Below, in pieces: positions 17,946 through 37,678 of a stretch of 43,345 bases of DNA. The DNA is from Frankiales bacterium. Its GTDB lineage: Bacteria > Actinomycetota > Actinomycetes > Mycobacteriales > SCTD01. How positions within the stretch are numbered: position 1 is the first letter of the stretch; each line of letters opens with the position of its first letter. The translations under genes and the position numbers were made by a program. The notes under the pieces were generated by a model that searched no databases, was not told the origin of the DNA, and worked only from the letters and a program-made list of their open reading frames with translations. The stretch covers positions 1-43,345 of the forward strand of contig JAYUBO010000198.1 of NCBI GenBank assembly GCA_043740815.1, read 5' to 3'.

Positions 17946-17960
17946 CACGCCCTCTGTGCG

Positions 17961-17988
17961 CGCGGCACGCGGCACGCGGCACGCGGCA
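17961..17988. repeat. Tandem heptamer (CGCGGCA) x4
   Basis: Read directly: cgcggca cgcggca cgcggca cgcggca, located 16 nt after the HAD stop at the edge of the mobile-element remnant. Confidence 0.85.
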
Positions 17989-19660: not shown

Positions 19661-19763
19661 AGCCAGCGACTTCCACTGCTGCGGGATCGGTCGATTCCAC
19701 TCCTACTTCAGCCTGAGCCTCTGGCTCGTGGCCACCGCTCGGCGCCCCGGTCGATCAGTGTCC

Positions 19764-20333: not shown

Positions 20334-20425
20334 GCGGACAGTCTGCCTGCAAGATTCACGACACGAAACTGGCGCACTGGGCCGCAAACCGGCAAAGGTA
20401 GGTGCATCCGACCCGGGGGCTCCTC

Positions 20426-22874: not shown

Positions 22875-23222
22875 TCAGTCGAAGACCCGCACCGGGCGGA
22901 CCTCGAGGGCGCCCCCAGGAGCCGGGATCTGCTTGGCCAGCGCGATCGCGCCGTCGAGATCCTCGGCCTCGACGACGTAGTAGCCGCCGAGCGCCTCCTT
23001 GGTCTCGAGGAAGGGACCGTCGGTGACGGTGAACGTCCCGTCGCCACCGGGGCGGATCGTGGTGGCCGTGTCAGGACCCTGCAGCGCGTTGCCGCCAGCA
23101 ATCTTGTCGCCGGCGGCCTCACCGAAGCTCAGGTGGCCCTTCATGACGTCGTCGACCAGGCCTTGCCCGCCCTCGGTATAGGCCTGAACGCTCTCGTAGA
23201 TCAGCACCAGGTACTGCGACAT
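22875..23222 (-). CDS. YCII-related (DGPF) domain protein
   Basis: ATG 23222 follows GAGGAG. The 115-aa protein reads MSQYLVLIYES...FTVTDGPFLETKEALGGYYVVEAEDLDGAIALAKQIP. The upstream part of ORF 22875..23507 is not protein-like. Confidence 0.85.
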   Translation of the reverse strand: MSQYLVLIYESVQAYTEGGQGLVDDVMKGHLSFGEAAGDKIAGGNALQGPDTATTIRPGGDGTFTVTDGPFLETKEALGGYYVVEAEDLDGAIALAKQIPAPGGALEVRPVRVFD

Positions 23223-23325
23223 GGGCCACTCCTCGGTCCGGGGCTCCGGGGTGGAGCCTCTCACCGGTACGACGAACGGGACAGGCCCAGATCGACAGCC
23301 GGCCACCCCGGCGGCGCGGCGTCGG

Positions 23326-23331
23326 TAGCCT
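23326..23331 (+). promoter_or_regulatory. Candidate -10 hexamer TAGCCT for a leaderless transcript of the CphA-paralog gene
   Basis: TAGCCT (TANNNT) ends 7 nt before ATG 23339, with no SD in between. The identical hexamer sits 6 nt before the GTG of the ddl-like gene at 29472. Confidence 0.3.
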
Positions 23332-23338
23332 CGGCGCC

Positions 23339-24991
23339 ATGCCGCACCGCCCCGAGGATGCCCCCGCGGTGCTACGGGAGCTGCGCCTGCTCGACGGCCC
23401 CAACTTGTACTTCCCGCGGGCTGCCTGCAAGGTGGTCCTCGATCTACACGAGCTGCTCGCCCTGTCCGAGGACGACTTCGGCCGCCGGGCGGCACATTGG
23501 GGCACACCGGTGGCGCGTCCCGGCCCGCCGGGTTCGCAGGTACGGGCCCGGGTCCTCGCGAGGGTCCTGCTGGGCGTCACCCGCTCGCTGGCCCGCACCG
23601 CCGGGGTGGGGCGGCTCGCCGTACGAAGTAGACCGGGGCCCGAGCCGGGGCAGCTGACCGTCGCCTTCCCGTGGCGCAGACGAGGTCTCGCGCAGGCGCT
23701 CGGCGTGGCGTTGGCCCGGACCATGGAAGGCGCGTCCGTCGACTTGGTCGGTGTCGAGCCCGGGCCGATGCCGTCCACGCCACGGCCGCGGATCCCTGTC
23801 GTCGCTGTGACCGGTACCAACGGCAAGACGACCACCACCCGCCTGATCGCGCACATGTCGCGCTGCGCGGGCAACGTCACCGGCTGGGCCTCGACCGACG
23901 GCGTCTTCGTCGATGGCGTTGCCGTCGAGCAGGGCGACTGGAGCGGGTACGGCGGAGCGGGCCGCGTCCTGGCCGACCCCAGCGTGCAGCTGGCGGTCCT
24001 CGAGACGGCCCGCGGTGGCCTGCTGCTTCGGGGGGCCGGCTCGTTGCACAACGACGTCTCGGTCGTGACCAACGTCGGCGCAGATCACCTTGGCCTGCAG
24101 GGAATCCACACGATCGACGACCTCGCCGAGGTGAAGGCCGTCGTACCAGGGATCACGCGGGCGGGGGGCTGGTGCGTCCTCAACGCGCAGGACCCACGGG
24201 TGCTCGCGATGGCTGCCACCTCGAAGGGCCGGCCGTGGGTCTTTTCCCTCGACCCGTCAGCCCCCGGAGTGCGTACGGCGATGGATGCCCATGGGCGGGC
24301 GACGACCGTGATGGACGACTGCGTGACGGTGCTCGGCGAGGGCGGCCTGGTCGACCCGATGCTGGCCCTGGCCGACATCCCGATGACCCTGTCCGGGCTG
24401 TCCCGGCACGACGTCGCGAACGCCCTCGCCGCCGTCGCCGCCGGCCTCGCGATCGGGCTGCCCCGCGGTGCCGTCCTCGAAGGGCTGAGAACCTTCTCCG
24501 CCGAGGACAACCCGGGCCGGATGAACCTGTGGAGCGTCGACGGCTGCGTGCTGTCGCTGGACCTCGCCCACAACGAGGACGGGCTCACCGCTCTGCTGTC
24601 CGTCGTCCGGGGCCTGCGGCTGGACGGTGGCCGGGTCGTCACGGTGCTCGGTGCGGTCGGTGACCGGCTCGATGGTCAGCTGCGGGAGATGGGCCGGCTG
24701 GCCCGGAACGGCTCCGACGAGGTCGTCATCGCCGTCAAGGACAACTACCTGCGGGGACGCACCGTGTCCGAGCTGGTCGGGCTGCTTCGCGAGGGGGCCG
24801 GTGACGTACCCGCCTACGACGACGAGGCGACGGCGTTGCGGGCCGTCCTGCTGGGTCGGCACCCGGCCGACGTCGTGGCACTGCTGTGTCATCAGGATCG
24901 GGCGGGTTGTGAGGACGTCCTTCGGGCCGCCGGGGGTCTCCGGATGTCCGCCGACCAGGTCCACGCCCGCGTCCTTGCTGCCCGCGCCTAA
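23339..24991 (+). CDS. Cyanophycin-synthetase-like protein with N-domain and Mur-ligase (M) domain only; no ATP-grasp domain
   Basis: 550 aa. The N-terminus VLRELRLLDGPNLYFPRAACKVVLDL parallels CphA IVSSRVYRGPNYWSYDPAVHLQVDL. From residue ~150, PRIPVVAVTGTNGKTTTTRLIAHM...LETARGGLLLRG...NVGADHLGL aligns by eye at roughly half identity with residues ~490 onward of the adjacent CphA (SRIPIVAITGTNGKTTTSRMVSHI...FEVARGGLLREG...NVSPDHLGL). Confidence 0.8.
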   Translation: MPHRPEDAPAVLRELRLLDGPNLYFPRAACKVVLDLHELLALSEDDFGRRAAHWGTPVARPGPPGSQVRARVLARVLLGVTRSLARTAGVGRLAVRSRPGPEPGQLTVAFPWRRRGLAQALGVALARTMEGASVDLVGVEPGPMPSTPRPRIPVVAVTGTNGKTTTTRLIAHMSRCAGNVTGWASTDGVFVDGVAVEQGDWSGYGGAGRVLADPSVQLAVLETARGGLLLRGAGSLHNDVSVVTNVGADHLGLQGIHTIDDLAEVKAVVPGITRAGGWCVLNAQDPRVLAMAATSKGRPWVFSLDPSAPGVRTAMDAHGRATTVMDDCVTVLGEGGLVDPMLALADIPMTLSGLSRHDVANALAAVAAGLAIGLPRGAVLEGLRTFSAEDNPGRMNLWSVDGCVLSLDLAHNEDGLTALLSVVRGLRLDGGRVVTVLGAVGDRLDGQLREMGRLARNGSDEVVIAVKDNYLRGRTVSELVGLLREGAGDVPAYDDEATALRAVLLGRHPADVVALLCHQDRAGCEDVLRAAGGLRMSADQVHARVLAARA

Positions 24992-25052
24992 GCCCCTTAC
25001 GTCCTAGGAAAGGCCCCCTTAGGTCAGCATGGAGGCTAGGACGCAGCGGGGG

Positions 25053-27797
25053 TCAGAGGTCGGGGTCGCCGGTGGAGGTGTCAGCGCGGGCACCCGCCTG
25101 GGCTCGTTGGGAGCGTTCCTGGATTTCCGACCAGACGGCGGTGTGGCTGTCGACGCACAGGACGACGAGGTCGCCGGTGCCGGCCAGGTCAAGGGCGCGG
25201 CGGGTGGCCTGCATCTCGTCGTGGACCTGTTCGACGACACCGCAGCGCGCCCCGTCTGCCATGGCGGCACGGGCACCGTCCTCGATGAGCGCCGCGACCT
25301 GACCACTGGGCCGCCCCCGCAGGCGTTTGTCCTCGCGTACGACGAGCAGGTCGAAGTGCCGCGCGGCGACCTCGCCGAGCTCGCGCATGTCCTCATCACG
25401 CCGGTCGCCAGCGGTGGCGATGACGCCGATCCGGCGGTGCCGCAGCAAGTCGTCGGTGGGCTGGTCGCTGAGCTTGTCGACGAAGTCGCCGAGCAGTCGC
25501 ATACCGGCCGCGTTGTGGCAGTAGTCGACGACGACGGTGATCCCGTCGATCTCGGTCACGTTGAGGCGGCCGGGCGCGAGGTAGTAGGACGTGGTGAACG
25601 TCCGCAGCCCCTGCCGGATGTCGTGCAGTGGAGCGCCCGCAGCGAAGGCGGCGCCAGCTGCGGCCATCGCGTTCTGGACGTTCATGATCGCCTTGCCGCC
25701 GAAAGTGGCGGGCAGCAGGTGCGTCCAGGCGAGCTGCATGGACCGTCGGCCGTGCCGGATCAAGATCATGTCGCCCAGGTCGCCGCGCTCGAGTACGACG
25801 GCCCGGCCGCCACGGCGGCAGTGGTCGTCGACCCTCTTCCAGACCGGCGTACCGGGCTGCGACATCGTGAACCACACGACCTGGCCGCTGCAGGAGCGGG
25901 ACATCTTGGCGACCAGCGGGTCGTCGGCGTTGAGGACCGCGAAGCCGTCGCGGGGTACCGCCTCGACGATGACCTGCTTCACCGTGGCCAGCTGCTCGAT
26001 GGTGTCGATGCCACCGAGCCCGAGGTGGTCGGGGGAGACGTTCAGGACGACCGCGACGTCGTTGCGCTCGTAGCCCAGGCCTTCGCGCAGTAGGCCTCCG
26101 CGGGCGACCTCGAAGACGGCGAAGTCGACGCGCGGGTTCTGCAGCACCATCCGGGCGCTCTTGGGGCCGGACGCGTCAGCCCGGATGACCAGGCGCTCGT
26201 CGATGACGATGCCGTCGGTCGAGGTCATCCCGACCTTGCGGCCCAGGCCTTTGAAGATGTGCGACACCATTCGCGACGTCGTCGTCTTGCCGTTGGTGCC
26301 GGTGATCGCGACGATGGGGATGCGGGAGGGGGTACCGGGCGGGAACAGCAGGTCGATGACGGGCTTCGCGACGTACTGCGGCTCGCCGACCGTCGGGTTG
26401 GTGTGCATCCGGAAGCCCGGGGCGGCGTTGACCTCGACGATGCCGCCGCCAACCTCACGGACCGGGTCGGAGATGTCGACGGCCATGAAGTCGATGCCGG
26501 CGACGTCGAGGCCGACGACGCGGGCCGCCTCCTCGGCGATCTCGACGTTGTCCGGATGGGCTTCGAGGGTCCGGTCGATCGAGATGCCGCCGGTCGACAT
26601 GTTGGCAGTCAGCGTGAGCTTTACCATGACGCCCCGGTCAGGGACGGCGGACCGGGTCAGGCCCTGCGCGCCAAGCAGCTCGTCGGCCGCCTCGTCGAGG
26701 GCGATCCTGGTGAGGACCTTCTCGTGGCCGACGCCCCGGCGGGGGTCGGCGTTCGTGACCTCGACCAGCTCGGCGACGGTCTGGACGCCGTCGCCGATGA
26801 CGTGGGCCGGCACCCGCTCGGCGACGGCGACCATCCGGCCGCCGACAACCAGGAACCGGTAGTCGCTGCCCACCAGGTAGGTCTCGACGATGACCCAGCC
26901 GCGGCGGGACTCGCTTTTGGCGACGTCGAAGGCTTTCGCGACCGCTGCGTCGTCACGCAGGTCGAGCCCGACCCCGCGCCCGTGGTTGCCGTCGGCCGGC
27001 TTCAGCACGACCGGGAAGCCGATCCGATGGGCGACCTCCAACGCGTCGTCGAGTGTCCGGACGGCCTTGGACTGCGGCACCGGCAGCCCAGCCGAGGACA
27101 GCAGCTGCAGGGTCATCTCCTTGTCGCTCGCGATGTCGACCGCAAGCGAGCCCGTCTGGGAGGTCATGGTGGCCCGGATCCGTTTTGCGTGGACCCCCTG
27201 CCCGAGCTGCACGAGCGACGCGGTGTTGAGTCGCATCCACGGGATGTCTCGGGACACGGCCTCATCGACCAGCGACTGGGTCGACGGCCCGAAGGCGGCC
27301 TTCTGGGCGAGCAGCAGCAGCCGCTCGATCTCGCCGCCGGGGTCGAGGTTGGGCTCGGCCTGCACGAGGTGATTCACCAGCCGGACGGCGAGCTTGCCGG
27401 CCGCGACCCCGACGGTCTCATCGGAATAGGCGTAGATCACGTCGTACACCCCGGGTCGGCCGGCGGTGCCCCGGGTCTTGCCACGCGACACGTCGGCGCC
27501 GGTGAGCTTTTGCAGCTCCAGGGCGACGTGCTCCGCGACGTGCCCGAGCCAGGTGCCCTCGTCAAGGCGCTCGGCAAAGCCACCGGCCTTGCGTCGTGAG
27601 CAGGAGTGCTCGCCGACGCCGGGAAGCAGTGCGAGCAGCGCCTCGGTGAAGCCCGGGATCAGGTCGGTCGGGAACTGCTCGAGACCCCCCAGGTCGACCT
27701 GCAGGTGTACCGCCGGGTCATACGACCAGTAGTTCGGTCCGCGGTAGACGCGGCTCGACACGATCGTCAGGTCGGGCGACGGCAGGGAGGTGGTCAT
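25053..27797 (-). CDS. cphA: Cyanophycin synthetase (N, ATP-grasp G and Mur-ligase M domains)
   Basis: 914 aa. N-domain: RVYRGPNYWSY, GEHSCS, GTWLGHVAEHVALELQ. ATP-grasp region: FPVVLKPADGNHGRGV, VNAAPGFRMH. M-domain: ITGTNGKTTT, DHLGLGGI. The start overlaps the cphB stop (ATGA). Confidence 0.93.
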   Translation of the reverse strand: MTTSLPSPDLTIVSSRVYRGPNYWSYDPAVHLQVDLGGLEQFPTDLIPGFTEALLALLPGVGEHSCSRRKAGGFAERLDEGTWLGHVAEHVALELQKLTGADVSRGKTRGTAGRPGVYDVIYAYSDETVGVAAGKLAVRLVNHLVQAEPNLDPGGEIERLLLLAQKAAFGPSTQSLVDEAVSRDIPWMRLNTASLVQLGQGVHAKRIRATMTSQTGSLAVDIASDKEMTLQLLSSAGLPVPQSKAVRTLDDALEVAHRIGFPVVLKPADGNHGRGVGLDLRDDAAVAKAFDVAKSESRRGWVIVETYLVGSDYRFLVVGGRMVAVAERVPAHVIGDGVQTVAELVEVTNADPRRGVGHEKVLTRIALDEAADELLGAQGLTRSAVPDRGVMVKLTLTANMSTGGISIDRTLEAHPDNVEIAEEAARVVGLDVAGIDFMAVDISDPVREVGGGIVEVNAAPGFRMHTNPTVGEPQYVAKPVIDLLFPPGTPSRIPIVAITGTNGKTTTSRMVSHIFKGLGRKVGMTSTDGIVIDERLVIRADASGPKSARMVLQNPRVDFAVFEVARGGLLREGLGYERNDVAVVLNVSPDHLGLGGIDTIEQLATVKQVIVEAVPRDGFAVLNADDPLVAKMSRSCSGQVVWFTMSQPGTPVWKRVDDHCRRGGRAVVLERGDLGDMILIRHGRRSMQLAWTHLLPATFGGKAIMNVQNAMAAAGAAFAAGAPLHDIRQGLRTFTTSYYLAPGRLNVTEIDGITVVVDYCHNAAGMRLLGDFVDKLSDQPTDDLLRHRRIGVIATAGDRRDEDMRELGEVAARHFDLLVVREDKRLRGRPSGQVAALIEDGARAAMADGARCGVVEQVHDEMQATRRALDLAGTGDLVVLCVDSHTAVWSEIQERSQRAQAGARADTSTGDPDL

Positions 27798-28714
27798 GAC
27801 GATGCGCCCTCCTGGCTGAGGCGACGGGGGACGTTGCCCACCGCTCCCTCGACGGCGATCAGCCGCTCGACCCTGCTGCGCACATGAGGGGGCTCGCGCA
27901 GGTCGTCGGGACGCCCACCGACACCGGGGAGCAGCAGGCGGGCGGCGAGGTCGAAACGGGCTCCAGCCGGCAGCGAGTGCACCACCATGCCCGACACGAG
28001 GATGGGTGCGCTCCGGGCAGCGGTGTCGATGTTGGACGTGGCGGTCCGGCCGTCGAACAGCGTGACGGCGCCGCGACCGATGACCTCGAGCAGATGCCCC
28101 TGCGTGATGATGGCTGCTGTGTCCTCATCGACGCCCATGCCGAGCAGGTGCGGGGCGTGCGACACCAGGGTCAGCAGCCGGCCATAACGGTTGCGCTGGT
28201 CGAAGTGCTGGTCGATCACCAGCCCGGGCAGCAGGCCCAGCCCGGCCGACATCTGGGCGCCACGCATCTTGGGCGTCGTACCGGGGGGGCCGAAGGCGAC
28301 CATGTGCTCGCTCTGGACCGAGGCGCCGGCAGAGGTGCCACCGACGACCACCCCCCGGATGTGGGCCATCTTGATGGCCGTTCCGAACGTCGTGCCGGCC
28401 AGGACCGCTGACAACGTCGACTGGTTGCCACCGGTCATGAAGATGCCGGTCACGTCGTGCAGCTGGGCGACCTGGTGCGGATCCTCAGCGTCAGCGCGGG
28501 TGCGCGGCCGGGGCGCCACGACGTCGGTGACACCGAGCTTGCCGAAGGCCTCGCGGTAGGCATCGATGATCTCCGCACCGAGCGAAGAGGCGGTCGCGAT
28601 GACCGCGACCTTCGCGCCAGGACCGCCGGCGAGCTTGGCGAAGCGGGCGAGAACCTGACGCGCGCCGGTCTTGTCCTCGGCGCCGCCGATGACCATCAGG
28701 GGGCCGGTCGTCAT
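27794..28714 (-). CDS. cphB: Cyanophycinase (peptidase S51)
   Basis: 306 aa. Contains MVIGGAEDK, FMTGGNQ, GGTSAGAS (nucleophile Ser) and VIDQHF..RNRYGRL. It is translationally coupled to cphA. Confidence 0.9.
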   Translation of the reverse strand: MTTGPLMVIGGAEDKTGARQVLARFAKLAGGPGAKVAVIATASSLGAEIIDAYREAFGKLGVTDVVAPRPRTRADAEDPHQVAQLHDVTGIFMTGGNQSTLSAVLAGTTFGTAIKMAHIRGVVVGGTSAGASVQSEHMVAFGPPGTTPKMRGAQMSAGLGLLPGLVIDQHFDQRNRYGRLLTLVSHAPHLLGMGVDEDTAAIITQGHLLEVIGRGAVTLFDGRTATSNIDTAARSAPILVSGMVVHSLPAGARFDLAARLLLPGVGGRPDDLREPPHVRSRVERLIAVEGAVGNVPRRLSQEGASS

Positions 28715-28795
28715 CGGACCACGCTACCGACCGGTCAGCGGCGGCCGTCCGCAGCCCGAGCCAGGCGGCCCTCGCAGCTCCTGCAGGGCGACAGG

Positions 28796-29281
28796 TCAGG
28801 GGCCGGGCGGCGGGTATCCGGGTGCGGGCGGGTTGGCGGCCGGCTTGGACGGCAGTTGCTCACCGGAGCGCTTGAAGTTCAGGAAGGCGAAGTAGGTCAT
28901 CGCTGCGGAGATCACGATGCCGAGGTAGAAACCGAAGGCAGGGTGCAGGTGGTTGCTGAACCCGGCGACGAACTGCAGCAGCAAGATGACAGTCGCGAGC
29001 CCGGTGGCGGCGAGCGTGATGAGGTTGACCCCAGCGGGGAGCTTGACGCTGTCGAGGGCGCCCATGAGCCTTGCCACGACGATCCCACCGGCGACGAGGG
29101 AAAGCAGGATCGCCAGCTTCGGCCAGCCGTAGGACCCGTTGCCCCAGGCGTTGACGCTCACGCTGAAGCCGCTCGCGCTGAAGGCCCGCCAGGAGAAGAA
29201 GCTGACGAGCAGCAGCAGGACGGCCCCACCGGCGATGTACCGGTCGTTGCCCTGCACCTTGTTGATGTCGAACTCGGCCAT
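28796..29281 (-). CDS. Hypothetical integral membrane protein with Pro-rich C-terminus
   Basis: 161 aa with four hydrophobic segments and the tail PSKPAANPPAPGYPPPGP. It lies 81 nt upstream of cphB on the same strand. Confidence 0.65.
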   Translation of the reverse strand: MAEFDINKVQGNDRYIAGGAVLLLLVSFFSWRAFSASGFSVSVNAWGNGSYGWPKLAILLSLVAGGIVVARLMGALDSVKLPAGVNLITLAATGLATVILLLQFVAGFSNHLHPAFGFYLGIVISAAMTYFAFLNFKRSGEQLPSKPAANPPAPGYPPPGP

Positions 29282-29459
29282 GTGTGAACCCCCAGGAAAT
29301 AGCCCTTGCCTTCAACCTAGACCGGCCGTGGAGGCACGGAAAGCCCCTGTCAGGTGTCCGACATCGCGGCTGTCAGCCGCCGGGCCCGCGCATGTGCAGG
29401 TCGGTGAAGGCGCCCCTGCTCATGCGTCTCAGGTGCTCGTCGCTGCGGGTGACGCCCAC

Positions 29460-29465
29460 TAGCCT
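29460..29465 (+). promoter_or_regulatory. Candidate -10 hexamer TAGCCT for a leaderless transcript of the ligase cassette
   Basis: TAGCCT ends 6 nt before GTG 29472, with no SD. Confidence 0.3.
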
Positions 29466-29471
29466 GTCGGC

Positions 29472-30425
29472 GTGCATCAGGTAGCGGTCATCTCCGGGGG
29501 GCTCTCCCACGAGCGGGACGTGTCGGTGCGCTCCGGGCGCCGACTTGCCGAGCAGCTCGTCAAGGCCGGGCTCGACGTCGACCACTGGGACGTCGACGAG
29601 CGCTTCGTCGGTCTGGTCTCAGACCGTGACGCCGACGTGGCCTTCGTCGCGCTGCACGGCGGGTCCGGCGAGAACGGCACGGTCCAGGCCCTGCTCGAGC
29701 TCGCCGGGCTGCCCTACGTCGGGTCGACGGCCGGCGCCTGCCGGGGCGCCTACGACAAGGCCATCGCCAAGACCCGCATGGTCGAGGCCGGCCTGTCTAC
29801 GCCGGCGTGGGTGACTCTGCCCAGCACGATTTTTCGCGAGGTGGGCCCGGAGAACCTCTACCACCTGGTCGACTCGGTCATCGGGCTGCCGTTGGTCGTC
29901 AAGCCCGTCACCGGTGGCTCCTCCCTCGGGGTGACCGTCGTCCGTGAGGAGAAGGACCTGCCGGGGGCGCTCGTCCAGGCCTACGCCTACGCGCCCGACG
30001 TCCTGCTCGAGGCCTACGTCCTCGGCCACGAGGTGACCGTCCCCGTCCTCGACCTCGGCGAGGGCCCCAAGGCGCTGGCGCCGATGCTCATCGAGCTGCC
30101 CGAAGGCACCGTCTACGACTACCAGGCCCGGTACGACGCCTCGTCCAACGTCCGCTACACCTCGCTGAGCGACGACGACCCGCGGGTCGACGTCGCCGCG
30201 GTGCGCGCCGTCGCCGAGCGGGTCCACAGCCTGCTGGGGCTGCGCGACCTGTCGCGCGTTGATGTGATCGTCGGGACGGACGGCGTGCCGCAGGTCCTTG
30301 AGGCGGCGGTCACGCCAGGGCTCACCGAGACGTCCACGTTTCCGCTGGCGGTCACCAGCGCAGGCCTTGAGCTCAGCGAGGTCTACGCGACCCTCGTCGG
30401 CAACGCGAAGAAGCGCGGCGGCTGA
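29472..30425 (+). CDS. D-alanine--D-alanine ligase family ATP-grasp protein (divergent, DdlB-length)
   Basis: 317 aa. Contains VAVISGGLSHERDVSVRSG, HGGSGENGTVQALLELAGLPYVGS, VVKPVTGGSSLGV and SRVDVIV...LEAAVTPGLTETS. It has Arg where DdlB has Lys215 (YQARY) and Ala where DdlB has Asn272 (EAA instead of ExN). Confidence 0.8.
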   Translation: MHQVAVISGGLSHERDVSVRSGRRLAEQLVKAGLDVDHWDVDERFVGLVSDRDADVAFVALHGGSGENGTVQALLELAGLPYVGSTAGACRGAYDKAIAKTRMVEAGLSTPAWVTLPSTIFREVGPENLYHLVDSVIGLPLVVKPVTGGSSLGVTVVREEKDLPGALVQAYAYAPDVLLEAYVLGHEVTVPVLDLGEGPKALAPMLIELPEGTVYDYQARYDASSNVRYTSLSDDDPRVDVAAVRAVAERVHSLLGLRDLSRVDVIVGTDGVPQVLEAAVTPGLTETSTFPLAVTSAGLELSEVYATLVGNAKKRGG

Positions 30426-30426
30426 G

Positions 30427-31134
30427 GTGGCGCTGACCGCCCTGCTCGACGGTGCGGTGCTGGCCGAAAAGACCGGGGACAACCCCCAGGTGCTCGCCCT
30501 GCACGGCTGGGGACGGACCCGCGCCGACTGGCTGCCGGTCCTCGCCGGGGTGGCCGCTCTCGCCGTCGACCTGCCTGGCTTCGGTGCCTCCCCGGAGCCG
30601 GCCACCGCCTGGGGCGCACGGGACTACGCCGAGCTTCTTGCCCCGGTCCTCGCGGGTGGCGGCTGGACCGTGGCGGGCCACTCCTTCGGTGGACGCGTCG
30701 CCGTACACCTGGCCGCGGGGTGGCCCTCGCTGATCTCCAAGGTGGTCCTGACAGGCGTCCCGCTGCTACGGACGACGTCCACGGCTAAGGCGCCGCTGGC
30801 GTTCCGGCTGGCCAGGAAGGCCCACCGGCTCGGCCTGCTCTCGGACGACGCGATGGAGCAGCAGCGGCGGGCGCGCGGCTCCACGGACTACCGCAACGCC
30901 ACCGGCGTGATGCGGGACACCCTGGTACGCCTGATCAACGAGGACTACCGCGAGCAGCTGGTGCGCATCGAGGCGCCGGTGGAGCTGGTGTGGGGTGCGT
31001 CGGACACCGCCGCGCCCTTGGCGATGGCCCGGGAGGCCTGTGGGCTGTTGGCGCACGGGACGCTGAGCGTCTCCGAGACGAGCGGCCATCTGCTCGACGA
31101 GGGGCTGTACGAGCTGCTGGCGCGGGCCCTGTGA
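30427..31134 (+). CDS. Alpha/beta hydrolase
   Basis: GTG 30427 lies 1 nt after the ddl-like stop. Contains LALHGWG, the nucleophile elbow GHSFGG, GASDTA (Asp) and SGHLL (His). The stop overlaps the next start (GTGA). Confidence 0.75.
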   Translation: MALTALLDGAVLAEKTGDNPQVLALHGWGRTRADWLPVLAGVAALAVDLPGFGASPEPATAWGARDYAELLAPVLAGGGWTVAGHSFGGRVAVHLAAGWPSLISKVVLTGVPLLRTTSTAKAPLAFRLARKAHRLGLLSDDAMEQQRRARGSTDYRNATGVMRDTLVRLINEDYREQLVRIEAPVELVWGASDTAAPLAMAREACGLLAHGTLSVSETSGHLLDEGLYELLARAL

Positions 31135-32633
31135 GCGTGCTGGTGCAGCTGCTGTGTGTCGCGGCAGCCGTGGCAGGGACCCCCCGCTGGCTGCGCGTCG
31201 CCCAGCGCGAGCACTACCTCCCCGGATCGGTGCTCTGGACCGAGCAGCTCTGGCTGAGCCGATCCCTGCCGTCAGTGTTGCTCTACCTGCCGGTCATCGG
31301 GTTGTTTGCCCTCGGGGTCGTCGTGAGCCCGTGGTTCTACGTCGGTGCCGCGGTCCTCGCGCAGACCACCCCGCTCGGGCTGCCCTACCGGGGGCGCACG
31401 TCGCGGCTGGCCTGGACGCCCCGGCTCCGCCGGCTCTGCGTCGTACTGGGGCTGCTCGTCGTTCTCGTCGCGGTCTGGTCACCTGCGCTGGCCAGCTGTA
31501 CGTCGCTGTTCCTCACAGCCCTGGTCGACCTGGCGTTGCTGAGCCTGACGCCGGTCGAGAAGAAGCTGTCCAGCGCCTTCCTCGAGCAGGCCCGGGCCAA
31601 GGTCGCAAAGGTCCGGCCGACGGTCGTCGCCATCACCGGGTCCTTCGGCAAGACGACCACCAAGAACTACCTCGCGCACCTGCTCGCGCAGACCCACACG
31701 GTGCTCGCGAGCCCCGCCTCCTTCAACAACGCGATGGGGCTGTCGCGGGCCGTCAACGAAGGCCTGGTCCCGGGGACGGAGGTGTTCGTCGCCGAGATGG
31801 GTACCTACGGCGAGGGTGAGATCCGCAGGCTGTGCGAGGTGTTCCCGCCCGACATCGCCGTGATGACCGCCATCGGCGAGGTGCACCTGCAGCGGATGAA
31901 GACGCGCGCGGGTGTGCTGCGTGCGAAGACCGAGATCACCGAAAAGGCCCGCACGGTCGTGCTCAACGTCGACGACGACCTGCTCGCCGGTCTCGCTGTT
32001 TCCCTTGCCGCACAAGGCAAACAGGTCCTCCGCTGCTCGGTGCTCACGGTCGATGCGGACGTCTGCATCGTGGAGGGAGTGCTGCATGTACGCGGGGACG
32101 AGGTCGGTCCCGTCACCCTGCCCGACGCCGTCCACCCGGCGAATGCGGCCTGCGCGGTCGGGGCTGCCGTGGCGCTCGGCGACGACCCGGCCGCCCTGCT
32201 CGGACGCCTCGCGACGATCCCCAACGTGGCCCACCGCCTGGAGCCGGTCGCCCAGCCTGGCGGCAGCTGGATCCTCGACGACACCTACAACTCCAACCCT
32301 GCCGGAGCCGCAGAAGCGGTACGCCGGGCGGTGTTGCTCGCCTCCCGCTCAGGTGGTCGTGTGCACGTCGTCACCCCCGGAATGGTCGAGCTCGGCGCCT
32401 ATCAGAAGGTCCGAAACACCGAGCTCGGCAAGGCCGTGGCTGATGCAGGGGCGGCCACCCTCGTGGTGGTCGGTCGGACCAACCTCCGTGCCCTGCGCAA
32501 AGGTGGATCGGGTGGTGGGACGCAGGTCCTGAAGGCCGCCACCCGCGAGGCCGCCGTCGCACTCGTCGGGACGAGGTCGGCCACCGGGGACGTCGTACTG
32601 TTCGAGAACGACCTCCCAGACCACTACCCCTGA
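31131..32633 (+). CDS. MurF-family Mur ligase with polytopic membrane N-terminal domain
   Basis: GTG 31131 overlaps the upstream TGA. The first ~140 aa are hydrophobic (LVQLLCVAAAVAG, VLLYLPVIGLFALGVVVSPWFYVGAAVLA, LCVVLGLLVVLVAVW, LFLTALVDLALLSL). Then come MurF-type motifs: AITGSFGKTTTKNYL, FNNAMGL, VAEMGTYGEGEI, AIGEVHLQRM, DDTYNSNPAGA and VTPGMVELG. Confidence 0.8.
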   Translation: MSVLVQLLCVAAAVAGTPRWLRVAQREHYLPGSVLWTEQLWLSRSLPSVLLYLPVIGLFALGVVVSPWFYVGAAVLAQTTPLGLPYRGRTSRLAWTPRLRRLCVVLGLLVVLVAVWSPALASCTSLFLTALVDLALLSLTPVEKKLSSAFLEQARAKVAKVRPTVVAITGSFGKTTTKNYLAHLLAQTHTVLASPASFNNAMGLSRAVNEGLVPGTEVFVAEMGTYGEGEIRRLCEVFPPDIAVMTAIGEVHLQRMKTRAGVLRAKTEITEKARTVVLNVDDDLLAGLAVSLAAQGKQVLRCSVLTVDADVCIVEGVLHVRGDEVGPVTLPDAVHPANAACAVGAAVALGDDPAALLGRLATIPNVAHRLEPVAQPGGSWILDDTYNSNPAGAAEAVRRAVLLASRSGGRVHVVTPGMVELGAYQKVRNTELGKAVADAGAATLVVVGRTNLRALRKGGSGGGTQVLKAATREAAVALVGTRSATGDVVLFENDLPDHYP

Positions 32634-32646
32634 TCGGAGCACCTTC

Positions 32647-33759
32647 GTGGGCCAGCTGGCCATCGTGTTCGGCGGACCGTCGCCGGAGCACGACATCAGC
32701 ATCCTGACCGGGCTGCTCAGTGAGCGGGTGCTGCGCGACGCGGGGCACGACGTCGCGCCCCTGTACTGGACGCGGACGGGGGAGTGGGTGCTGTGCCCCC
32801 CGCGCTCGGAGGCAAAGGACTTCCTGGAGGGTGCCCCGCGGGGTGCCACCAAGCTCGAGGTGACCCTCGGGGGCGGCTTTCAGACCCCCAAGAAAGGCCT
32901 CGGTGGCGGTAAGCCGCTCGCCCTGGACGTGGCCCTGAACTGCTGCCATGGCGGCGCCGGCGAGAACGGCGGCCTCAACGCGGTCTTCGACCAGCTCGGC
33001 CTCCCGATGACCGGCGGCCCCTCCACGCTGGCCGCCCTGGGCATGGACAAGCTCGCCTTCGGGGCGGTCCTGCAGGCCAACGCGATCCCGACCCTGCCGC
33101 GCGTCGCGCTCGGGGCCGAACAGGTCCCCTTCGACGGGCCGTACATCGTCAAGCCCCGCTTCGGTGGCTCGAGCATCGGGATCGAGGTGGTCGAGGACCT
33201 CGACACCGCCCGGGCGCTCGCCAGGACGTCGGTGCACCTGCGGCAGGGTGTCGTGCTCGAGCCGTTCTCCAAGGGCGCGATCGACCTGAACCTGGCCTAC
33301 TCGACGCACCCGTCCCTGCGCTTCTCGCTGCTCGAGAAGCCGCTCGCCCCGGCGGCCGCTGAAGGGATCTACTCCTACACCCAGAAGTACCTGCAGACCG
33401 ACGGGCTACAGGCCGCGCCCCGCGAGCTGCCCGCCCAGGTCCCCGCGGAGGTGACGGCCGAGGCAGAGCGCCTGGCGGGTGCCGTGCTCGCCGTGACGGG
33501 TCTGCGAGGTCTGGGGCGCCTGGACTTCCTGCTCGTCGACGACGTGCTCTACGTCAACGAGGTGAACACGATCCCCGGGTCCATGTCGCTCTACCTGTGG
33601 CCCTCGACGATCCCGGCCGCCGAGCTGCTGATGGGCTCCGTCGAGGAGGCCCGCGCCTCGTTCGGGTGGGCTGAGCCGGCGCCGTTCGAGCCCGGGGCTG
33701 CCCTGCGGGCGGCCGGAGGGATGGCCGGCAAGCTCGGTCAGATCGGCCAGAACCGGTAA
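32647..33759 (+). CDS. ddl: D-alanine--D-alanine ligase (DdlA-length, canonical active-site motifs)
   Basis: 370 aa with GTG 32647 after GGAG. Contains LAIVFGGPSPEHDISILTG, HGGAGENGGLNAVFDQLGLPMTG, VKPRFGGSSIGI, YTQKYL (Lys-Tyr retained) and GRLDFLL...NEVNTIPGSMS (ExN retained). Confidence 0.85.
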   Translation: MGQLAIVFGGPSPEHDISILTGLLSERVLRDAGHDVAPLYWTRTGEWVLCPPRSEAKDFLEGAPRGATKLEVTLGGGFQTPKKGLGGGKPLALDVALNCCHGGAGENGGLNAVFDQLGLPMTGGPSTLAALGMDKLAFGAVLQANAIPTLPRVALGAEQVPFDGPYIVKPRFGGSSIGIEVVEDLDTARALARTSVHLRQGVVLEPFSKGAIDLNLAYSTHPSLRFSLLEKPLAPAAAEGIYSYTQKYLQTDGLQAAPRELPAQVPAEVTAEAERLAGAVLAVTGLRGLGRLDFLLVDDVLYVNEVNTIPGSMSLYLWPSTIPAAELLMGSVEEARASFGWAEPAPFEPGAALRAAGGMAGKLGQIGQNR

Positions 33760-33827
33760 GCCTGCCGGGCCCGCGAGGTGCGCGGCTGGCCCCGTACCCT
33801 TTGTACGGTGAGTGAGCTGGCGAGTCC

Positions 33828-34580
33828 GTGACCGGTGGCTCGGGGGCGGGCAAGGCCACGGGCAAGCCCGCAGGGGTGTCGACGGGCCCGCGAGGGCGGC
33901 CAGCGGCGGGCGGCGGACGTTGGGTCAGCGTCGGACCGGAACGACTGACCAGGTGGGTCGAGGGCTTTGGTAACCGGCACGGCGCCTTCACGACAGCCGT
34001 GGGGGACGCGGCTGCTCCCGGGACGGTGGTGCTCGTCGCGGCGGACGGTTCCCAGGCGCATATCGAGGTGCCGTTTCCGCCGCTGGCTACCCCGACGGCT
34101 TCTCTGCTCGAGGCACTGCTGGCCCATGTCCTGGCGCCACGCACGGTGGGGGTGCTGCTGGTTCGGCTCGGGGGCTATGCCGCGGGCGTGTTCGACGGCG
34201 GCGTCCTGGTCAGCTCGAAGGTCGGCTCGCGGCAGGTCCACGGGAGGTCGGCTGCGGGCGGCTGGTCACAGCAGCGGTTCGCCAGGAGGCGGGAGGGTCA
34301 GGCCAGCGTCGCCCTGCAGTCGGCGGCCGACAACGCCGTCCGGATCCTCCTCGGCCGGCCCCTGGACGCGGTGGTGGTCGGTGGGGAGCGGACAGCCGTC
34401 GAAGCGGTACTCGACGACCGGCGACTCGCGGACGTGAAGGCGCTCGTCACAGGCCGGCTGCTCGACGTGCCCGACCCACGCTTGACGATTCTGCAGAAGG
34501 CGCCGTACCGGGACGTCTGGATCCGCGTGGTCGAGGCCGGGGGCCCTCCGCCGCTGCCCATGAAAGACTCACAGCCATGA
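33828..34580 (+). CDS. acVLRF1-like (Vms1/ANKZF1-type release-factor fold) putative peptidyl-tRNA hydrolase
   Basis: 250 aa. The core GYAAGVFDGGVLVSSKVGSRQVHGRSAAGGWSQQRFARRRE carries the GG-x-x-Q-type loop of the VLRF1 clade as I recall it. The exact start is uncertain because the N-terminus is Gly/Pro-rich. Confidence 0.65.
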   Translation: MTGGSGAGKATGKPAGVSTGPRGRPAAGGGRWVSVGPERLTRWVEGFGNRHGAFTTAVGDAAAPGTVVLVAADGSQAHIEVPFPPLATPTASLLEALLAHVLAPRTVGVLLVRLGGYAAGVFDGGVLVSSKVGSRQVHGRSAAGGWSQQRFARRREGQASVALQSAADNAVRILLGRPLDAVVVGGERTAVEAVLDDRRLADVKALVTGRLLDVPDPRLTILQKAPYRDVWIRVVEAGGPPPLPMKDSQP

Positions 34581-35620
34581 GTGAAATGCGGCTGTTGGCG
34601 GCTCCGAAGCCAGGCCGGCTCGGGGCTGTGGTCTACGCGCTGCGTACCACCAACCCGCCGCCGGACCGACCGATCGCCTCCCTCGACGTGGTCACCCGCT
34701 GGGTCGTGGTCACCAGGGCCGCCGTCCTGCCGATGACGCTGTTCGCCGGGCTCGTTGCCGGGCTGCTGGCCGTCCGCGCGGAGGGCTTCTCGGCCTGGAT
34801 GTTCGCCCTGGCGCTGGTCGGCATCCTGCTCGCCCACACCTCCAACAACCTCATGAACGACCTGGCCGACACCGACGTCGGCCTCGACACTGCGAGCTAC
34901 CCGCGGGCGCTGTACGCGCCGCACCCGATCCTGTCCGGCCTGGTCACGCGCAGCCAGTTGATGGCCGCGATTGGCGCGTGTGTCCTGGCCGACTTCGTCA
35001 TCATGGTGGTCCTTGCCGCGCAACGCGGCTGGCCGGTCGTGGCCTTTGCCGTCGGCGGACTGCTGCTGTCCTACGCCTACACCGCGCCGCCGCTACGGCT
35101 GAAGAAGCACGGTCTCGGCGAGCCGGATGTCTTCGTGACGTGGGGACCGCTGATGGTCGCCGGCACCTACTTCAGCTCCGTCGGTCACCTGCCGTGGCAG
35201 GTGTGGGTCGCGTCCGTGCCCTACGGACTGCTCTGTACGACGGTCCTCATGGGCAAGCACATCGACAAGATCCCCTACGACGAGCCGACCGGGACCCGCA
35301 CCATCCCGGTGATCCTCGGCGAGGAACGGGCCAGGGTCGTCACGATCGGGTTGGTGCTGGGGTTCTACGCCGCCGTCGTGGCGGCTGTCGCCGTACAGGC
35401 GCTTCCCTGGCCGTCCCTGCTGGTCCTGGTCTACCTGCCCGTGGCGTGGAAGGTCACCGGCGCGTTGCGGGCGCCGAAGCCGGCCGAGCCGCCGCCCGGC
35501 TTCCCGGTGTGGCCGCTGTGGTTCGCGGCGATCTGCTTCGTGCACACCGCCCGGGTGGGTGGGCTGCTCGTGCTCGGCCTAGTCGTCTCGGCCGTCTTCG
35601 AGATCGGACTGCCGCTGTGA
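34577..35620 (+). CDS. UbiA-family prenyltransferase (MenA-like)
   Basis: 347 aa and polytopic. The first Asp-rich motif is NNLMNDLADTD. ATG 34577 overlaps the upstream TGA (ATGA). Confidence 0.8.
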   Translation: MSEMRLLAAPKPGRLGAVVYALRTTNPPPDRPIASLDVVTRWVVVTRAAVLPMTLFAGLVAGLLAVRAEGFSAWMFALALVGILLAHTSNNLMNDLADTDVGLDTASYPRALYAPHPILSGLVTRSQLMAAIGACVLADFVIMVVLAAQRGWPVVAFAVGGLLLSYAYTAPPLRLKKHGLGEPDVFVTWGPLMVAGTYFSSVGHLPWQVWVASVPYGLLCTTVLMGKHIDKIPYDEPTGTRTIPVILGEERARVVTIGLVLGFYAAVVAAVAVQALPWPSLLVLVYLPVAWKVTGALRAPKPAEPPPGFPVWPLWFAAICFVHTARVGGLLVLGLVVSAVFEIGLPL

Positions 35621-35940
35621 TCGCGATGCTCTCGACCCTGTTGGCCGTGCTCCTGGTCGCTGTGGTGGTCCTCGCGTTGGGAGTCGGCCTGGCGATCGCG
35701 CCGTATGTGCTGAGCATCGACATGGCGGAGCGCCGGGGCTTCTCGAGCACCCGCTGGGGCGCTGTCGCCCTGGTGCCGGTCGGGCTGATGCTGCTCCTCG
35801 GCTTCGAGGTGGTGAAGCGTCAGGCGCCGGGTCTGCTGCTCGTGCCCGTGGCGGGGCTCGGGTGGCTCACCCCGCTCACCCTGCTGCTGGTCGACGACGG
35901 CTCGCGGCTCGGAGGCAGCGCGGGGGCGCACGAAGCCTGA
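35617..35940 (+). CDS. Small hypothetical membrane protein
   Basis: GTG 35617 overlaps the UbiA TGA (alternative ATG 35626). About 105 aa with three hydrophobic segments (LLAVLLVAVVVLALGVGLAIAPYVL, AVALVPVGLMLLLGF, LLLVPVAGLGWLTPLTLLLV). Confidence 0.5.
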   Translation: MIAMLSTLLAVLLVAVVVLALGVGLAIAPYVLSIDMAERRGFSSTRWGAVALVPVGLMLLLGFEVVKRQAPGLLLVPVAGLGWLTPLTLLLVDDGSRLGGSAGAHEA

Positions 35941-35942
35941 GC

Positions 35943-36677
35943 TCAGGGGACGGCGATCACCTTGAAGGACTCCGCGAGGCGCCCCTCTGGAAGACCACCG
36001 GCAATGGCGTTGGCGCCGAGCCAGCCACGAAGCATGCCCTCGAGGTCGTCCATGTGGGCGGTCTGGCTGACGTGCCTGCGCAGCGCCTCGACCTTGCGGT
36101 CGAAGGTGCCGGTCACGTCGACCCAGCGGTTGGCACCGCCGGAGGCGCCGGCAGCCATGACCCACACGTCGTGAACGCTCCAGGCGTCGAGGTTCTCGTC
36201 CTGCAGCAGCGAGGTGTGCGTGAAGGGGTTGCGCGCGTCGGGATAGACCGCACACAGCGTCGCCTCGCCCGCCGCCCGGTGGTCGGGGTGGGACGCGCCA
36301 AGGCGCTCCCAGTTGATCTCGGGGCTCTGCATCATCAGGCGCTGCGGGCGCACCTGGCGGATGACCCGGCTGATGTCGCGGCGCAGGTCGAACGACGCGA
36401 CGAGCTGACCGTCCGGGTAGTCCAGGAAGCGGACGTCGGCGACGCCGACCTCCTTCGCGGCAGCCCGCTGCTCGTCCCGCCGGATACCGGCGATGTCGGT
36501 GCGGGCGACCGCCGGGTCGAAGCCGCCGGCGTCCCCGGCGGTACACAGCAGGTAGGTGACCTCGATGCCTTCGTCGGTCCAGCCCGCGATGGTCCCCGCC
36601 GCGCCGAAGTCGATGTCGTCGGGGTGGGCCACCACGACCAGGGCCCGTTCGGTCTTCGTCGTGTCGGAATCGCTCAT
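35943..36677 (-). CDS. PIG-L/LmbE family deacetylase
   Basis: 244 aa. Contains ALVVVAHPDDIDFGAAGTIA and HPDHRAAG, the zinc-binding motifs of the family. Confidence 0.85.
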   Translation of the reverse strand: MSDSDTTKTERALVVVAHPDDIDFGAAGTIAGWTDEGIEVTYLLCTAGDAGGFDPAVARTDIAGIRRDEQRAAAKEVGVADVRFLDYPDGQLVASFDLRRDISRVIRQVRPQRLMMQSPEINWERLGASHPDHRAAGEATLCAVYPDARNPFTHTSLLQDENLDAWSVHDVWVMAAGASGGANRWVDVTGTFDRKVEALRRHVSQTAHMDDLEGMLRGWLGANAIAGGLPEGRLAESFKVIAVP

Positions 36678-36772: not shown

Positions 36773-37678
36773 ATGCGCAAGCTTGACCCGAGCGAGCTCT
36801 ACGAGCTGGACCCCGACCGTCCCGACGTCTCCGGTGCCGTCCTCGTGCAGGCCCTGGACGGCTTCATCGACGCCGGCGGTGCCCGCAAGCTCGCCTCACA
36901 GCACCTTTTGGACACCCTGGACAGCACCGTGGTGGCGCGCTTCGACCACGACCAGCTGTTCGACTACCGGGCCCGCCGGCCGATCATGGTCTTCGCCAGG
37001 GACCACTGGGAGTCCTACGACACTCCCCAGCTGGCCCTGCACCTGCTCCACGACCTCGCCGGCAACCCCTTCCTCGTGCTCGCCGGCCCTGAGCCGGACG
37101 TGCAGTGGGAGCGCTTCGTGGCCGCTGTCGAGCAGCTCTGCAAAGTCCTCGGCGTACGACGGAGCATCGGACTGAACGCCATCCCCATGGGTCTGCCCCA
37201 CACCCGACCGGTCGGGGTCATCGCACATGGCGTGCCACGGTCGCTGGTCGAGGGCTACGAGCCGTGGGTCGAGACCGTCCAGGTACCGGCGTCGGCGGGC
37301 CACCTGCTCGAGTTCCGGCTCGCGGAGGCCGGCTACGAGGCGATGGGGTTCGCCGTACACGTGCCGCACTACGTCGCCCAGAGCAGCTATCCGGCGGCGG
37401 CGGCGCAGCTGGTGCGTGAGGTCGCCAAGAGCGGGGGCCTCGACCTGCCGGTCGACGCGCTGGACGCCGCGGCGCTGGCCACCCGCGAGGCCCTGGACGA
37501 GCAGGTCGCCGGCGCCCCCGAGGTCGCCGAGGTCGTCCGACAGCTCGAAGAGCAGTACGACGCATTTCTGCGCGGCCGCACCGAGCACGATGCGATCGCG
37601 GAGTCCGACCTGCCCACCGCCGACGAGCTCGGTGCCGAGCTCGAGCGTTTCTTGGCCCAGCAGCCGCCCCGCGACTGA
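36773..37678 (+). CDS. PAC2 (proteasome assembly chaperone 2-like) family protein
   Basis: 301 aa. The segments LVQALDGFIDAGGA, FDYRARRPIM, LAGPEPDVQWERF and NAIPMGLPHTRP are typical of actinobacterial PAC2 proteins. Confidence 0.8.
   Translation: MRKLDPSELYELDPDRPDVSGAVLVQALDGFIDAGGARKLASQHLLDTLDSTVVARFDHDQLFDYRARRPIMVFARDHWESYDTPQLALHLLHDLAGNPFLVLAGPEPDVQWERFVAAVEQLCKVLGVRRSIGLNAIPMGLPHTRPVGVIAHGVPRSLVEGYEPWVETVQVPASAGHLLEFRLAEAGYEAMGFAVHVPHYVAQSSYPAAAAQLVREVAKSGGLDLPVDALDAAALATREALDEQVAGAPEVAEVVRQLEEQYDAFLRGRTEHDAIAESDLPTADELGAELERFLAQQPPRD

Follow-up and report, generated by a model that had tools for sequence, protein, structure and literature searches.

Yeast Vms1 and human ANKZF1 (eVLRF-1) release nascent chains from the obstructed 60S subunit with the help of the ABCF ATPase Arb1. 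The accessory domains of eVLRF-1 are a Rei1-type zinc finger, ankyrin repeats and VIM (PMC6514570). The actinobacterial/chloroflexi Vms1-like release factor 1 (acVLRF-1) family, represented by the PF18859 and NF041024 models, was described by Burroughs and Aravind in 2019, who reported a GGxSQ motif for it (PMC6514570). The family is widespread in Actinomycetota and still experimentally uncharacterised: in the literature searched, this computational paper stands alone, and no experimental work on acVLRF1 or on bacterial Vms1-like proteins was found. Another system to be considered is the bacterial hibernation factor Balon, which is without GGQ and consists of three domains (PMC10901736).

A gene of the acVLRF1 family was analyzed in a stretch of 43,345 nt from a Frankiales bacterium (contig JAYUBO010000198.1), the whole of which is called the window below. 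This gene (33828..34580, plus strand; 250 aa when read from the GTG at 33828) is followed on the same strand by a gene for a UbiA-superfamily membrane prenyltransferase (34577..35620, 347 aa) and a gene for a small protein with three transmembrane (TM) segments (35617..35940; 107 aa from GTG or 104 aa from the alternative ATG at 35626). Direct reading of the sequence shows that the TGA of acVLRF1 shares the overlap ATGA (34577..34580, plus strand) with the ATG of UbiA, and that the TGA of UbiA shares the overlap GTGA (35617..35620, plus strand) with the GTG of the small TM gene. The three ORFs and both overlaps are thus as they had been given in the initial annotation. For acVLRF1, whose conserved core comprises residues ~24–236, an alternative start is the GTG at 33876 (plus strand); the start at 33828 is supported by the related locus L081, in which a start codon aligns with it. 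Gene starts in the relatives are the output of automatic gene callers. In the gene tables of the related loci, 4-nt overlaps are commonplace and occur between many unrelated co-directional neighbours, such as an a/b-hydrolase gene and a MurF-like gene, ABC subunits, and PIG-L and acVLRF1 in L091; therefore, such an overlap by itself says little.

The assignment of the first gene to the VLRF1 group proved to be correct. The profile scores exceed the curated cut-offs both for PF18859 of Pfam (143.4 bits; cut-off 27.1) and for NF041024 of NCBIfam (257.5 bits; cut-off 125), and the only Pfam matches, which cover residues 95–229, are the acVLRF1 and baeRF families. The catalytic-loop region SKVGSRQVHGRSAAGGWSQQRFARRREGQ (34215..34301, plus strand; residues 130–158), within which VHGRSAAGGWSQQRFARRRE corresponds to residues 137–156, carries the GGxSQ motif in the form GGWSQ (nt 34257–34271, plus strand; residues 144–148). 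In the 28-sequence alignment A1, most positions of this region, including G144, G145, S147, Q148 and Q149, are invariant. The AF2 model (mean pLDDT 85.5) consists of a small N-terminal subdomain (residues 32–80) and a catalytic domain (residues 93–235). Comparison of the model with the PDB in the Foldseek program gave 27 matches at E <= 1e-3, the top one being eRF1 (4d5n_A, 1.9e-6), and the matches also included aRF1, Pelota, Vms1 (6r84_R) and Balon. A phmmer search of the PDB with the acVLRF1 sequence gave no match even at E 10, so that these relatives surfaced by fold comparison only. The protein has an eRF1-type catalytic domain and a short N-terminal region and is without the stop-codon-binding and C-terminal Pelota-type domains. 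Its ends are lineage-specific: the first ~23 and the last ~13 (GGPPPLPMKDSQP) residues are missing from most homologues, which have a length of 200–220 aa. The first gene is an acVLRF1-family Vms1-like release-factor homologue and represents an ordinary member of a known, experimentally uncharacterised family.

The Foldseek matches include the mycobacterial Balon homologues 8v9k_z (E 1.6e-4), 8v9l_z and 8v9j_z, and Balon is a bacterial homologue of aeRF1 (PMC10901736), which would be compatible with acVLRF1 being a Balon-like hibernation factor that sits in the A site when ribosomes are idle and is no hydrolase. Such a role is unlikely because the GGxSQ loop of acVLRF1 is invariant, and the basic residues flanking it are also kept. 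In addition, the 250-aa protein has no C-terminal domain, its model being composed of the N-terminal subdomain and the catalytic domain only, and the matches with eRF1 and aRF1 are stronger.

Upstream of acVLRF1, a Ddl-like gene (stop at 33759) is followed by an intergenic gap of 68 nt (33760..33827, plus strand) that contains the hairpin CCGTAC-CCTTT-GTACGG with a 6-bp stem. Both the gap and the hairpin had been pointed out initially and are present, but a signal function of the hairpin did not withstand analysis and was dismissed: its region has the same fold energy as shuffled sequence does (z = 0.03), and a search of the gap region for terminator-like or promoter-like sites gave no match. 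The corresponding gap of L081 carries a 31-nt insertion. A scan of the whole window against Rfam revealed no family reaching the gathering score.

As for the second gene, its original designation as UbiA was confirmed by a PF01040 score of 94.7 bits (cut-off 34.2) and by invariant motif residues. In 12 homologues, N90, N91, N94, D95, D98, G102 and D104 of the first Asp-rich motif NNLMNDLADTDVGLD (nt 34844–34888, plus strand) are invariant, as are D230, D235, G239, T240 and R241 of the second, DKIPYDEPTGTRT (nt 35264–35302, plus strand). Hydropathy analysis indicates multiple TM segments, and among the solved structures that of UBIAD1 (8djk) is the nearest in sequence. The best NCBIfam matches are MenA-like and all lie far under their cut-offs, namely TIGR00751 (66.6 vs. 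102.15), NF004751 (105.2 vs. 264) and TIGR02235 (117.9 vs. 225). According to these sequence features, the product belongs to the MenA/UBIAD1 branch of UbiA enzymes and is intact. The possibility that it is the housekeeping MenA was dismissed, as every MenA cut-off is missed and close relatives are without the gene; no men genes were found near it.

The hydropathy profile of the small protein contains three TM segments (residues 9–27, 48–66 and 74–92), in agreement with the initial annotation, and no family of Pfam or NCBIfam matches it. It has a conserved motif, DMAERRGFSSTRWG (nt 35719–35760, plus strand). Homologues with 40–77% identity are encoded directly 3' of UbiA in L081, L083, L085, L087, L089 and L094, and one is retained in L004 without UbiA. 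The 4-nt overlap of UbiA with the small TM gene was also called in L083, L089 and L090. Judging by this comparison, the conserved coupled pair at the locus is that of UbiA and the small TM gene.

Besides these assignments, it had been proposed that the release-factor fold and the prenyltransferase are functionally linked. Such a link, if true, would be remarkable, as it would connect membrane lipid chemistry with a fold of ribosome rescue. The order of the genes was therefore compared within the clade of the window, defined by UbiA sequences at least 72% identical, and outside it. In the clade, acVLRF1 is normally located on the strand opposite to UbiA, either head-to-head or 1 to 6 genes apart. 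Among the 18 metagenome loci of the clade whose upstream sequence extends over at least 1 kb, acVLRF1 lies upstream of UbiA in 14, always on the opposite strand (14/14), being adjacent in 9 loci and ~3.5 kb away in 5. The opposite-strand arrangement was also found in L083 and L085–L090. In L083, L086, L089 and L090, as in nine of the metagenome loci, the layout is head-to-head with short spacers. Besides the window, just L081/L082 and L093 show the in-line order, and the junctions differ: a 4-nt overlap in the window, an 8-nt overlap in L093 and a 13-nt gap in L081, the latter differing from the window by a 1-nt indel in the 3' end of acVLRF1. Conservation of co-directional adjacency across genomes was not observed (0/14 acVLRF1-bearing metagenome loci of the clade, and none of L083 and L085–L090); the in-line pair is shared by the window and two close relatives only. 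In L004, L091 and L092, acVLRF1 is present and UbiA is absent; in L091, the acVLRF1 overlap is with PIG-L.

Outside the clade, 80 acVLRF1 loci of other Actinomycetota were examined, with one genome per species. UbiA was found within 6 kb of acVLRF1 in none of them (0/80), even at E 0.05, and the usual order is that of suf genes or a suf operon, acVLRF1 and an ABC-F ATPase gene. Similarly, acVLRF1 was not found near the distant UbiA relatives (<72% identical) in any of 34 loci, where the neighbours of UbiA are TetR, CMAS, KAS and SDR genes. Taken with L004, L091 and L092, the 80 acVLRF1 loci and the 34 loci of distant UbiA genes do not show joint presence or absence of the two genes. The functional link proposed initially is not supported, and the outcome that had been named as refuting it, a lack of joint conservation in other genomes, has largely come about.

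These data bear directly on a functional three-gene operon, in which acVLRF1 would cleave aminoacyl- or peptidyl-tRNA and the moiety would be handed to a prenyl carrier that UbiA either makes or uses, possibly feeding the peptide-ligase cassette upstream. The co-directional genes of the window with their 4-nt overlaps, the in-line order shared by L081/L082 and L093, and the position of acVLRF1 in the clade, with a Ddl/MurF-like cassette on one side and UbiA and PIG-L on the other, are consistent with it. Against it stand the restriction of the in-line order to a small sub-lineage, as the product of a one-gene inversion, the opposite-strand location of acVLRF1 in the other clade members, often 1 to 6 genes from UbiA, its retention in the three loci without UbiA, and the zero counts among both the 80 and the 34 loci; moreover, the overlap is due to a C-terminal tail of acVLRF1 for which no conservation is seen. 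A functional acVLRF1–UbiA operon is largely refuted by the gene-order data, and we regard it as scarcely credible.

The inversion itself was detected by BLASTN comparison of positions 33000–35700 of the window with L083, L089, L090 and L086. In all four, the acVLRF1 body matches on the minus strand, whereas the 3' end of Ddl2 and UbiA match on the plus strand; with L081 and L093, the region is fully collinear. The inverted segment corresponds to the acVLRF1 gene body (33897..34534, with no strand assigned), and its flanks are collinear with most relatives. A search for inverted repeats flanking acVLRF1 revealed only short (13–19 nt), imperfect, GC-rich matches, mostly inside the gene, and these give no evidence for an invertible element around it. 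Since the in-line layout goes back to a recent flip of the acVLRF1 gene alone in this lineage, the pairing is most likely accidental.

Proximity within the clade is a separate matter. In L086, the place of the Ddl cassette is taken by a branched-chain amino-acid ABC transporter, and acVLRF1 is nevertheless still close to UbiA; this survival of the left-flank change makes selection for proximity or for shared bidirectional control conceivable, and such selection may act within the clade. One form of it would be a regulatory link, in which acVLRF1 and the UbiA–small TM pair share a short bidirectional control region (14–113 nt) and are induced together by, for example, stress on the envelope or on translation, the lineage of the window having turned the link into co-transcription. 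The head-to-head loci with short spacers (nine metagenome loci, L083, L086, L089 and L090) also fit this reading, as do the genes for a PspC-domain kinase and a LuxR-type regulator that directly precede UbiA, in its orientation, in L087 and L088. However, the order of PIG-L, PAC2 and UvrD/PcrA in the block is conserved equally well, and ordinary synteny thus accounts for the closeness of acVLRF1 and UbiA. In addition, the two tolerate the insertion of 1 to 6 genes between them, acVLRF1 can remain after a loss of UbiA, and no promoter-like motif was detectable, which makes the regulatory link rather improbable. A broader version, to which we assign a very low probability, is that acVLRF1 is kept in the clade beside envelope genes (the Ddl/MurF-like cassette, UbiA with the small TM gene, and PIG-L) by joint action; it could, for instance, act by release or proofreading on an aminoacyl or peptidyl donor that is linked to tRNA and used for envelope peptide or lipid synthesis, with a shared bidirectional control region that was tightened to an operon in the lineage of the window.

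We consider it highly probable that the locus consists of two independent units, acVLRF1 and the UbiA–small TM pair, which abut by chance; the pairing of acVLRF1 and UbiA most likely reflects a chance gene order and not a new pathway. The first unit would be acVLRF1, a stand-alone soluble protein in which a short N-terminal domain is combined with a catalytic domain of the eRF1 type that bears the GGWSQ loop. Its homology to Vms1/ANKZF1 and eRF1 suggests that it most likely enters the A site when a ribosome has stalled or a large subunit is obstructed and that it would place Gln148 in the peptidyl-transferase centre, so that peptidyl-tRNA would be cleaved and the nascent chain released. On homology alone, acVLRF1 is thus most likely a ribosome-rescue or quality-control factor. 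The second unit would comprise a MenA/UBIAD1-like prenyltransferase with intact Asp-rich motifs and its translationally coupled 3-TM partner. The probable role of this pair is to prenylate some aromatic or lipid acceptor within the membrane, and it is an accessory module because close relatives are without it. In the ancestor of the Frankiales-like clade, acVLRF1 presumably lay 5' of UbiA on the other strand; later, in a small sub-lineage to which the window belongs, only acVLRF1 was inverted. The inversion probably supplied acVLRF1 with its new N- and C-terminal tails, and a 1-nt indel probably shifted its stop codon onto the ATG of UbiA afterwards. Read-through co-transcription of acVLRF1 and UbiA in the window organism is plausible, and a shared biochemical pathway is not indicated.

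In comparison with the known systems, the window protein is similar to the acVLRF-1 family in its profile scores above both cut-offs and its GGxSQ motif and differs only by the tails of ~23 N-terminal and 13 C-terminal residues and by its inverted orientation relative to clade relatives. The window UbiA resembles the MenA/UBIAD1 branch in matching PF01040 and in its MenA-type motifs (NxxND..D...GxD and D....D...G..T). Unlike MenA, it remains under every equivalog cut-off, has no men genes nearby, is coupled to a 3-TM partner without a family match, and is dispensable in the close relatives L004, L091 and L092. With Balon (Rv2629, Msmeg1130), acVLRF1 shares the aeRF1 fold (Foldseek E ~1e-4 to 1e-3), but it keeps GGxSQ and is without the C-terminal domain. 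The catalytic domain of Vms1/ANKZF1 has the same fold (6r84_R and 6r87_R among the Foldseek matches); its loop is GSQ in Vms1 and GGWSQ in acVLRF1, both bearing a glutamine and being projected toward the peptidyl-transferase centre. The zinc finger, ankyrin repeats and VIM of these eukaryotic proteins were not detected by Pfam in the bacterial 250-aa protein, which is matched by release-factor-family models alone. Vms1 acts with the ABCF protein Arb1, and acVLRF1 often adjoins an ABC-F gene in other Actinomycetota, although not in the window. This recurrent neighbourhood in other orders echoes the eukaryotic Vms1–Arb1 partnership, and the ABC-F neighbour is a more promising lead to the function of acVLRF1 than the UbiA neighbour.

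Three co-directional ORFs, laid out as the initial annotation had described, were read in the plus strand of the sequence. The first (33828–34580, start codon GTG, 250 aa) encodes acVLRF1, a member of the Vms1-like release factor 1 family, the second (34577–35620, start codon ATG, 347 aa) a UbiA prenyltransferase, and the third (35617–35940, start codon GTG with an alternative ATG at 35626, 107 aa) a small transmembrane (TM) protein. The acVLRF1 stop and UbiA start codons share ATGA at 34577–34580; the UbiA stop and small TM start codons share GTGA at 35617–35620. Third-position G+C of the three ORFs is 0.84–0.92, as expected for real genes of this genome (G+C of the window, 69%). A 68-nt gap separates acVLRF1 from the upstream Ddl-like gene, which stops at 33759. 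The small hairpin previously noted in this gap is present, but shuffled sequence folds just as well as its region (z = 0.03); a search of the gap for terminator-like or promoter-like sites found none.

The upstream stretch 23147–33759 is unusually ligase-rich. It comprises a stand-alone Mur-ligase-like gene (23147–24991, plus strand), genes of a cyanophycin synthetase-like protein (25053–27797) and an S51 cyanophycinase-like peptidase (27794–28714), both on the minus strand, a Ddl-like gene (29472–30425), an a/b-hydrolase gene, a MurF-like ligase gene with a hydrophobic N-terminal extension (ending at 32633), and Ddl2 (32647–33759), likewise Ddl-like but divergent. The last four are kept as a cassette across the clade, that is, the window's own Frankiales-like group with UbiA at least 72% identical. 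Directly downstream of the three-gene set lie a PIG-L/LmbE-type deacetylase gene (35943–36677), whose product does not reach the MshB, Mca or BshB cut-offs, and a PAC2-family (proteasome-assembly-chaperone-like) gene (36773–37678); both are kept in order with the UvrD/PcrA helicase gene throughout the clade. The region 16300–20400 has somewhat lower G+C (63–69%). It gave no Rfam match, and long ORFs with the high third-position G+C seen elsewhere in the window are lacking.

The acVLRF1 product scored 143.4 bits with Pfam PF18859, where the cut-off is 27.1, and 257.5 bits with NCBIfam NF041024, where it is 125. When the product is aligned with 27 homologues, its SKVGSRQVHGRSAAGGWSQQRFARRREGQ stretch is invariant at most positions; the GGWSQ motif occupies residues 144–148. 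The AlphaFold2 model built on the same alignment (mean pLDDT 85.5) consists of a small N-terminal subdomain and a catalytic domain. A plain sequence search against the PDB gave no match; Foldseek analysis of the model gave 27 PDB matches at E ≤ 1e-3, with eRF1 and aRF1 on top and with Pelota, mycobacterial Balon and the 60S-associated yeast Vms1 (6r84_R) among the others. Balon is a three-domain protein without a GGQ-type motif (PMC10901736), whereas the protein studied here has GGWSQ; therefore, it is not a Balon. The initial assignment to VLRF1 is thus upheld by profile scores and a predicted eRF1/Vms1-type fold, and the protein is one more member of an already known family that was defined by computation; the defining paper (PMC6514570) describes it as a Vms1-like release factor. 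Given that it is homologous to eRF1 and Vms1 and carries an invariant glutamine loop, acVLRF1 is best read as a putative stand-alone ribosome-associated release or rescue factor; the literature searched contained no experimental demonstration of this function for any member.

The second gene, called UbiA earlier, matches PF01040 with 94.7 bits, and both Asp-rich motifs are intact and invariant among homologues; its product is a UbiA-superfamily enzyme. Its best NCBIfam matches are MenA-like, all far under their own cut-offs, and human UBIAD1 is the closest solved relative by sequence. The small protein has no Pfam or NCBIfam match, and its hydropathy profile bears out the three TM segments proposed for it. 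Since the 4-nt UbiA–small TM overlap is kept in three related loci (L083, L089, L090), this pair is a real conserved unit, predicted to be an accessory membrane prenyltransferase module. One locus, L004, keeps acVLRF1 and the small TM gene and lacks UbiA.

The position of acVLRF1 is less constant. Many UbiA homologues of 72–98% identity occur in metagenome bins of Frankiales and Mycobacteriales; their contexts were surveyed together with 80 further loci from a metagenome scan. Among the clade loci compared, acVLRF1 and UbiA are in line nowhere but in the window, where they overlap by 4 nt, in L093, whose acVLRF1 is 91% identical and overlaps UbiA by 8 nt, and in L081/L082, with 87% identity of acVLRF1 and a gap of 13 nt. 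In all other clade loci holding both genes, acVLRF1 lies on the strand opposite UbiA: head-to-head at 14–113 nt in L083, L086, L089, L090 and most of nine adjacent metagenome loci (about 370 and 565 nt in two of the nine, L100 and L105), with one intervening gene in L085, and with four to six, including genes of a PspC-domain kinase and a LuxR-type regulator, in L087, L088 and five metagenome loci. The two genes might be loosely linked in their regulation by a divergent control region common to both; this is considered improbable.

In L087 (3805–6974), L088 (3773–6948), L106, L110, L111 and L113, genes inserted between acVLRF1 and UbiA encode two PspC-domain proteins, one of them a histidine kinase, and a response regulator of LuxR/GerE type; the regulator gene has the orientation of UbiA and ends 27–53 nt ahead of its start. 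In these genomes, the arrangement is a hint that the UbiA module forms part of an envelope-stress regulon.

In BLASTN comparison of window positions 33000–35700 with L083, L089, L090 and L086, the Ddl2 3′ end and UbiA match the plus strand, and the acVLRF1 body between them (approximately 33897–34534) matches the minus strand; therefore, the sub-lineage of the window differs from the other clade members by the inversion of a single gene. Both ends of the acVLRF1 gene are new: most homologues lack the N-terminal ~23 and the C-terminal ~13 residues. Comparison with L081 shows a 1-nt indel close to the 3′ end, which alters the tail frame and places the stop on the UbiA ATG. No convincing inverted repeats flanking acVLRF1 were found. 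The window's gene arrangement is evolutionarily recent.

Overlaps of 4 nt are frequent between unrelated neighbours in these loci. L091 (5294–6672) and L092 (5253–6585) lack both UbiA and the small TM gene, and acVLRF1 directly follows PIG-L on the same strand, with a 4-nt overlap in L091; acVLRF1 therefore overlaps whichever gene happens to adjoin. Since the whole block (acVLRF1, UbiA, small TM, PIG-L, PAC2, UvrD/PcrA) is syntenic within the clade, the continued closeness of acVLRF1 to UbiA carries no more information than that of its other neighbours.

Beyond the clade, a one-genome-per-species scan gave 80 loci with acVLRF1 relatives of 44–65% identity, and none contained a UbiA relative within up to 6 kb on each side, even at E 0.05. 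Conversely, acVLRF1 was found in 0 of 34 loci of UbiA relatives below 72% identity with usable upstream sequence. These results do not support the proposed functional coupling of acVLRF1 and UbiA; the suggestion that a tRNA-derived moiety is handed to a prenyl carrier, for which local adjacency is the sole argument, is very improbable. Genes near the distant UbiA relatives include those of TetR, a mycolic-acid-type methyltransferase, ketoacyl synthase and SDR. L126–L173 (63–70% identity; e.g., L129 5607–6587, L136 8001–8999) show quite different contexts, of lipid metabolism: a TetR regulator gene directly precedes UbiA in the same orientation, CMAS-type methyltransferases (of the mycolic-acid cyclopropane synthase family), a ketoacyl synthase and SDR are encoded alongside, and PIG-L and acVLRF1 are both absent.

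Most of the 80 acVLRF1 loci share the order suf iron–sulfur operon, acVLRF1, ABC-F ATPase, followed by a helix-turn-helix gene and enoyl-CoA hydratase. In 39 of the 80 loci of other Actinomycetota, the ABC-F ATPase (two ABC_tran domains and ABC_tran_Xtn) is encoded downstream of acVLRF1, within 4 kb and in the same orientation; it directly adjoins acVLRF1 in 11 of these (gaps 95–239 nt), and the suf operon usually precedes this arrangement. The loci concerned fall within L005–L080 (e.g., L005 6001–8421, L063, L077, L079) and do not include the window. The partner of yeast Vms1, whose structure (PDB 6r84) is among the fold matches of acVLRF1, is the ABCF ATPase Arb1 (PMC7026593); the acVLRF1–ABC-F neighbourhood could be a functional echo of the Vms1–Arb1 pair or only deep synteny.
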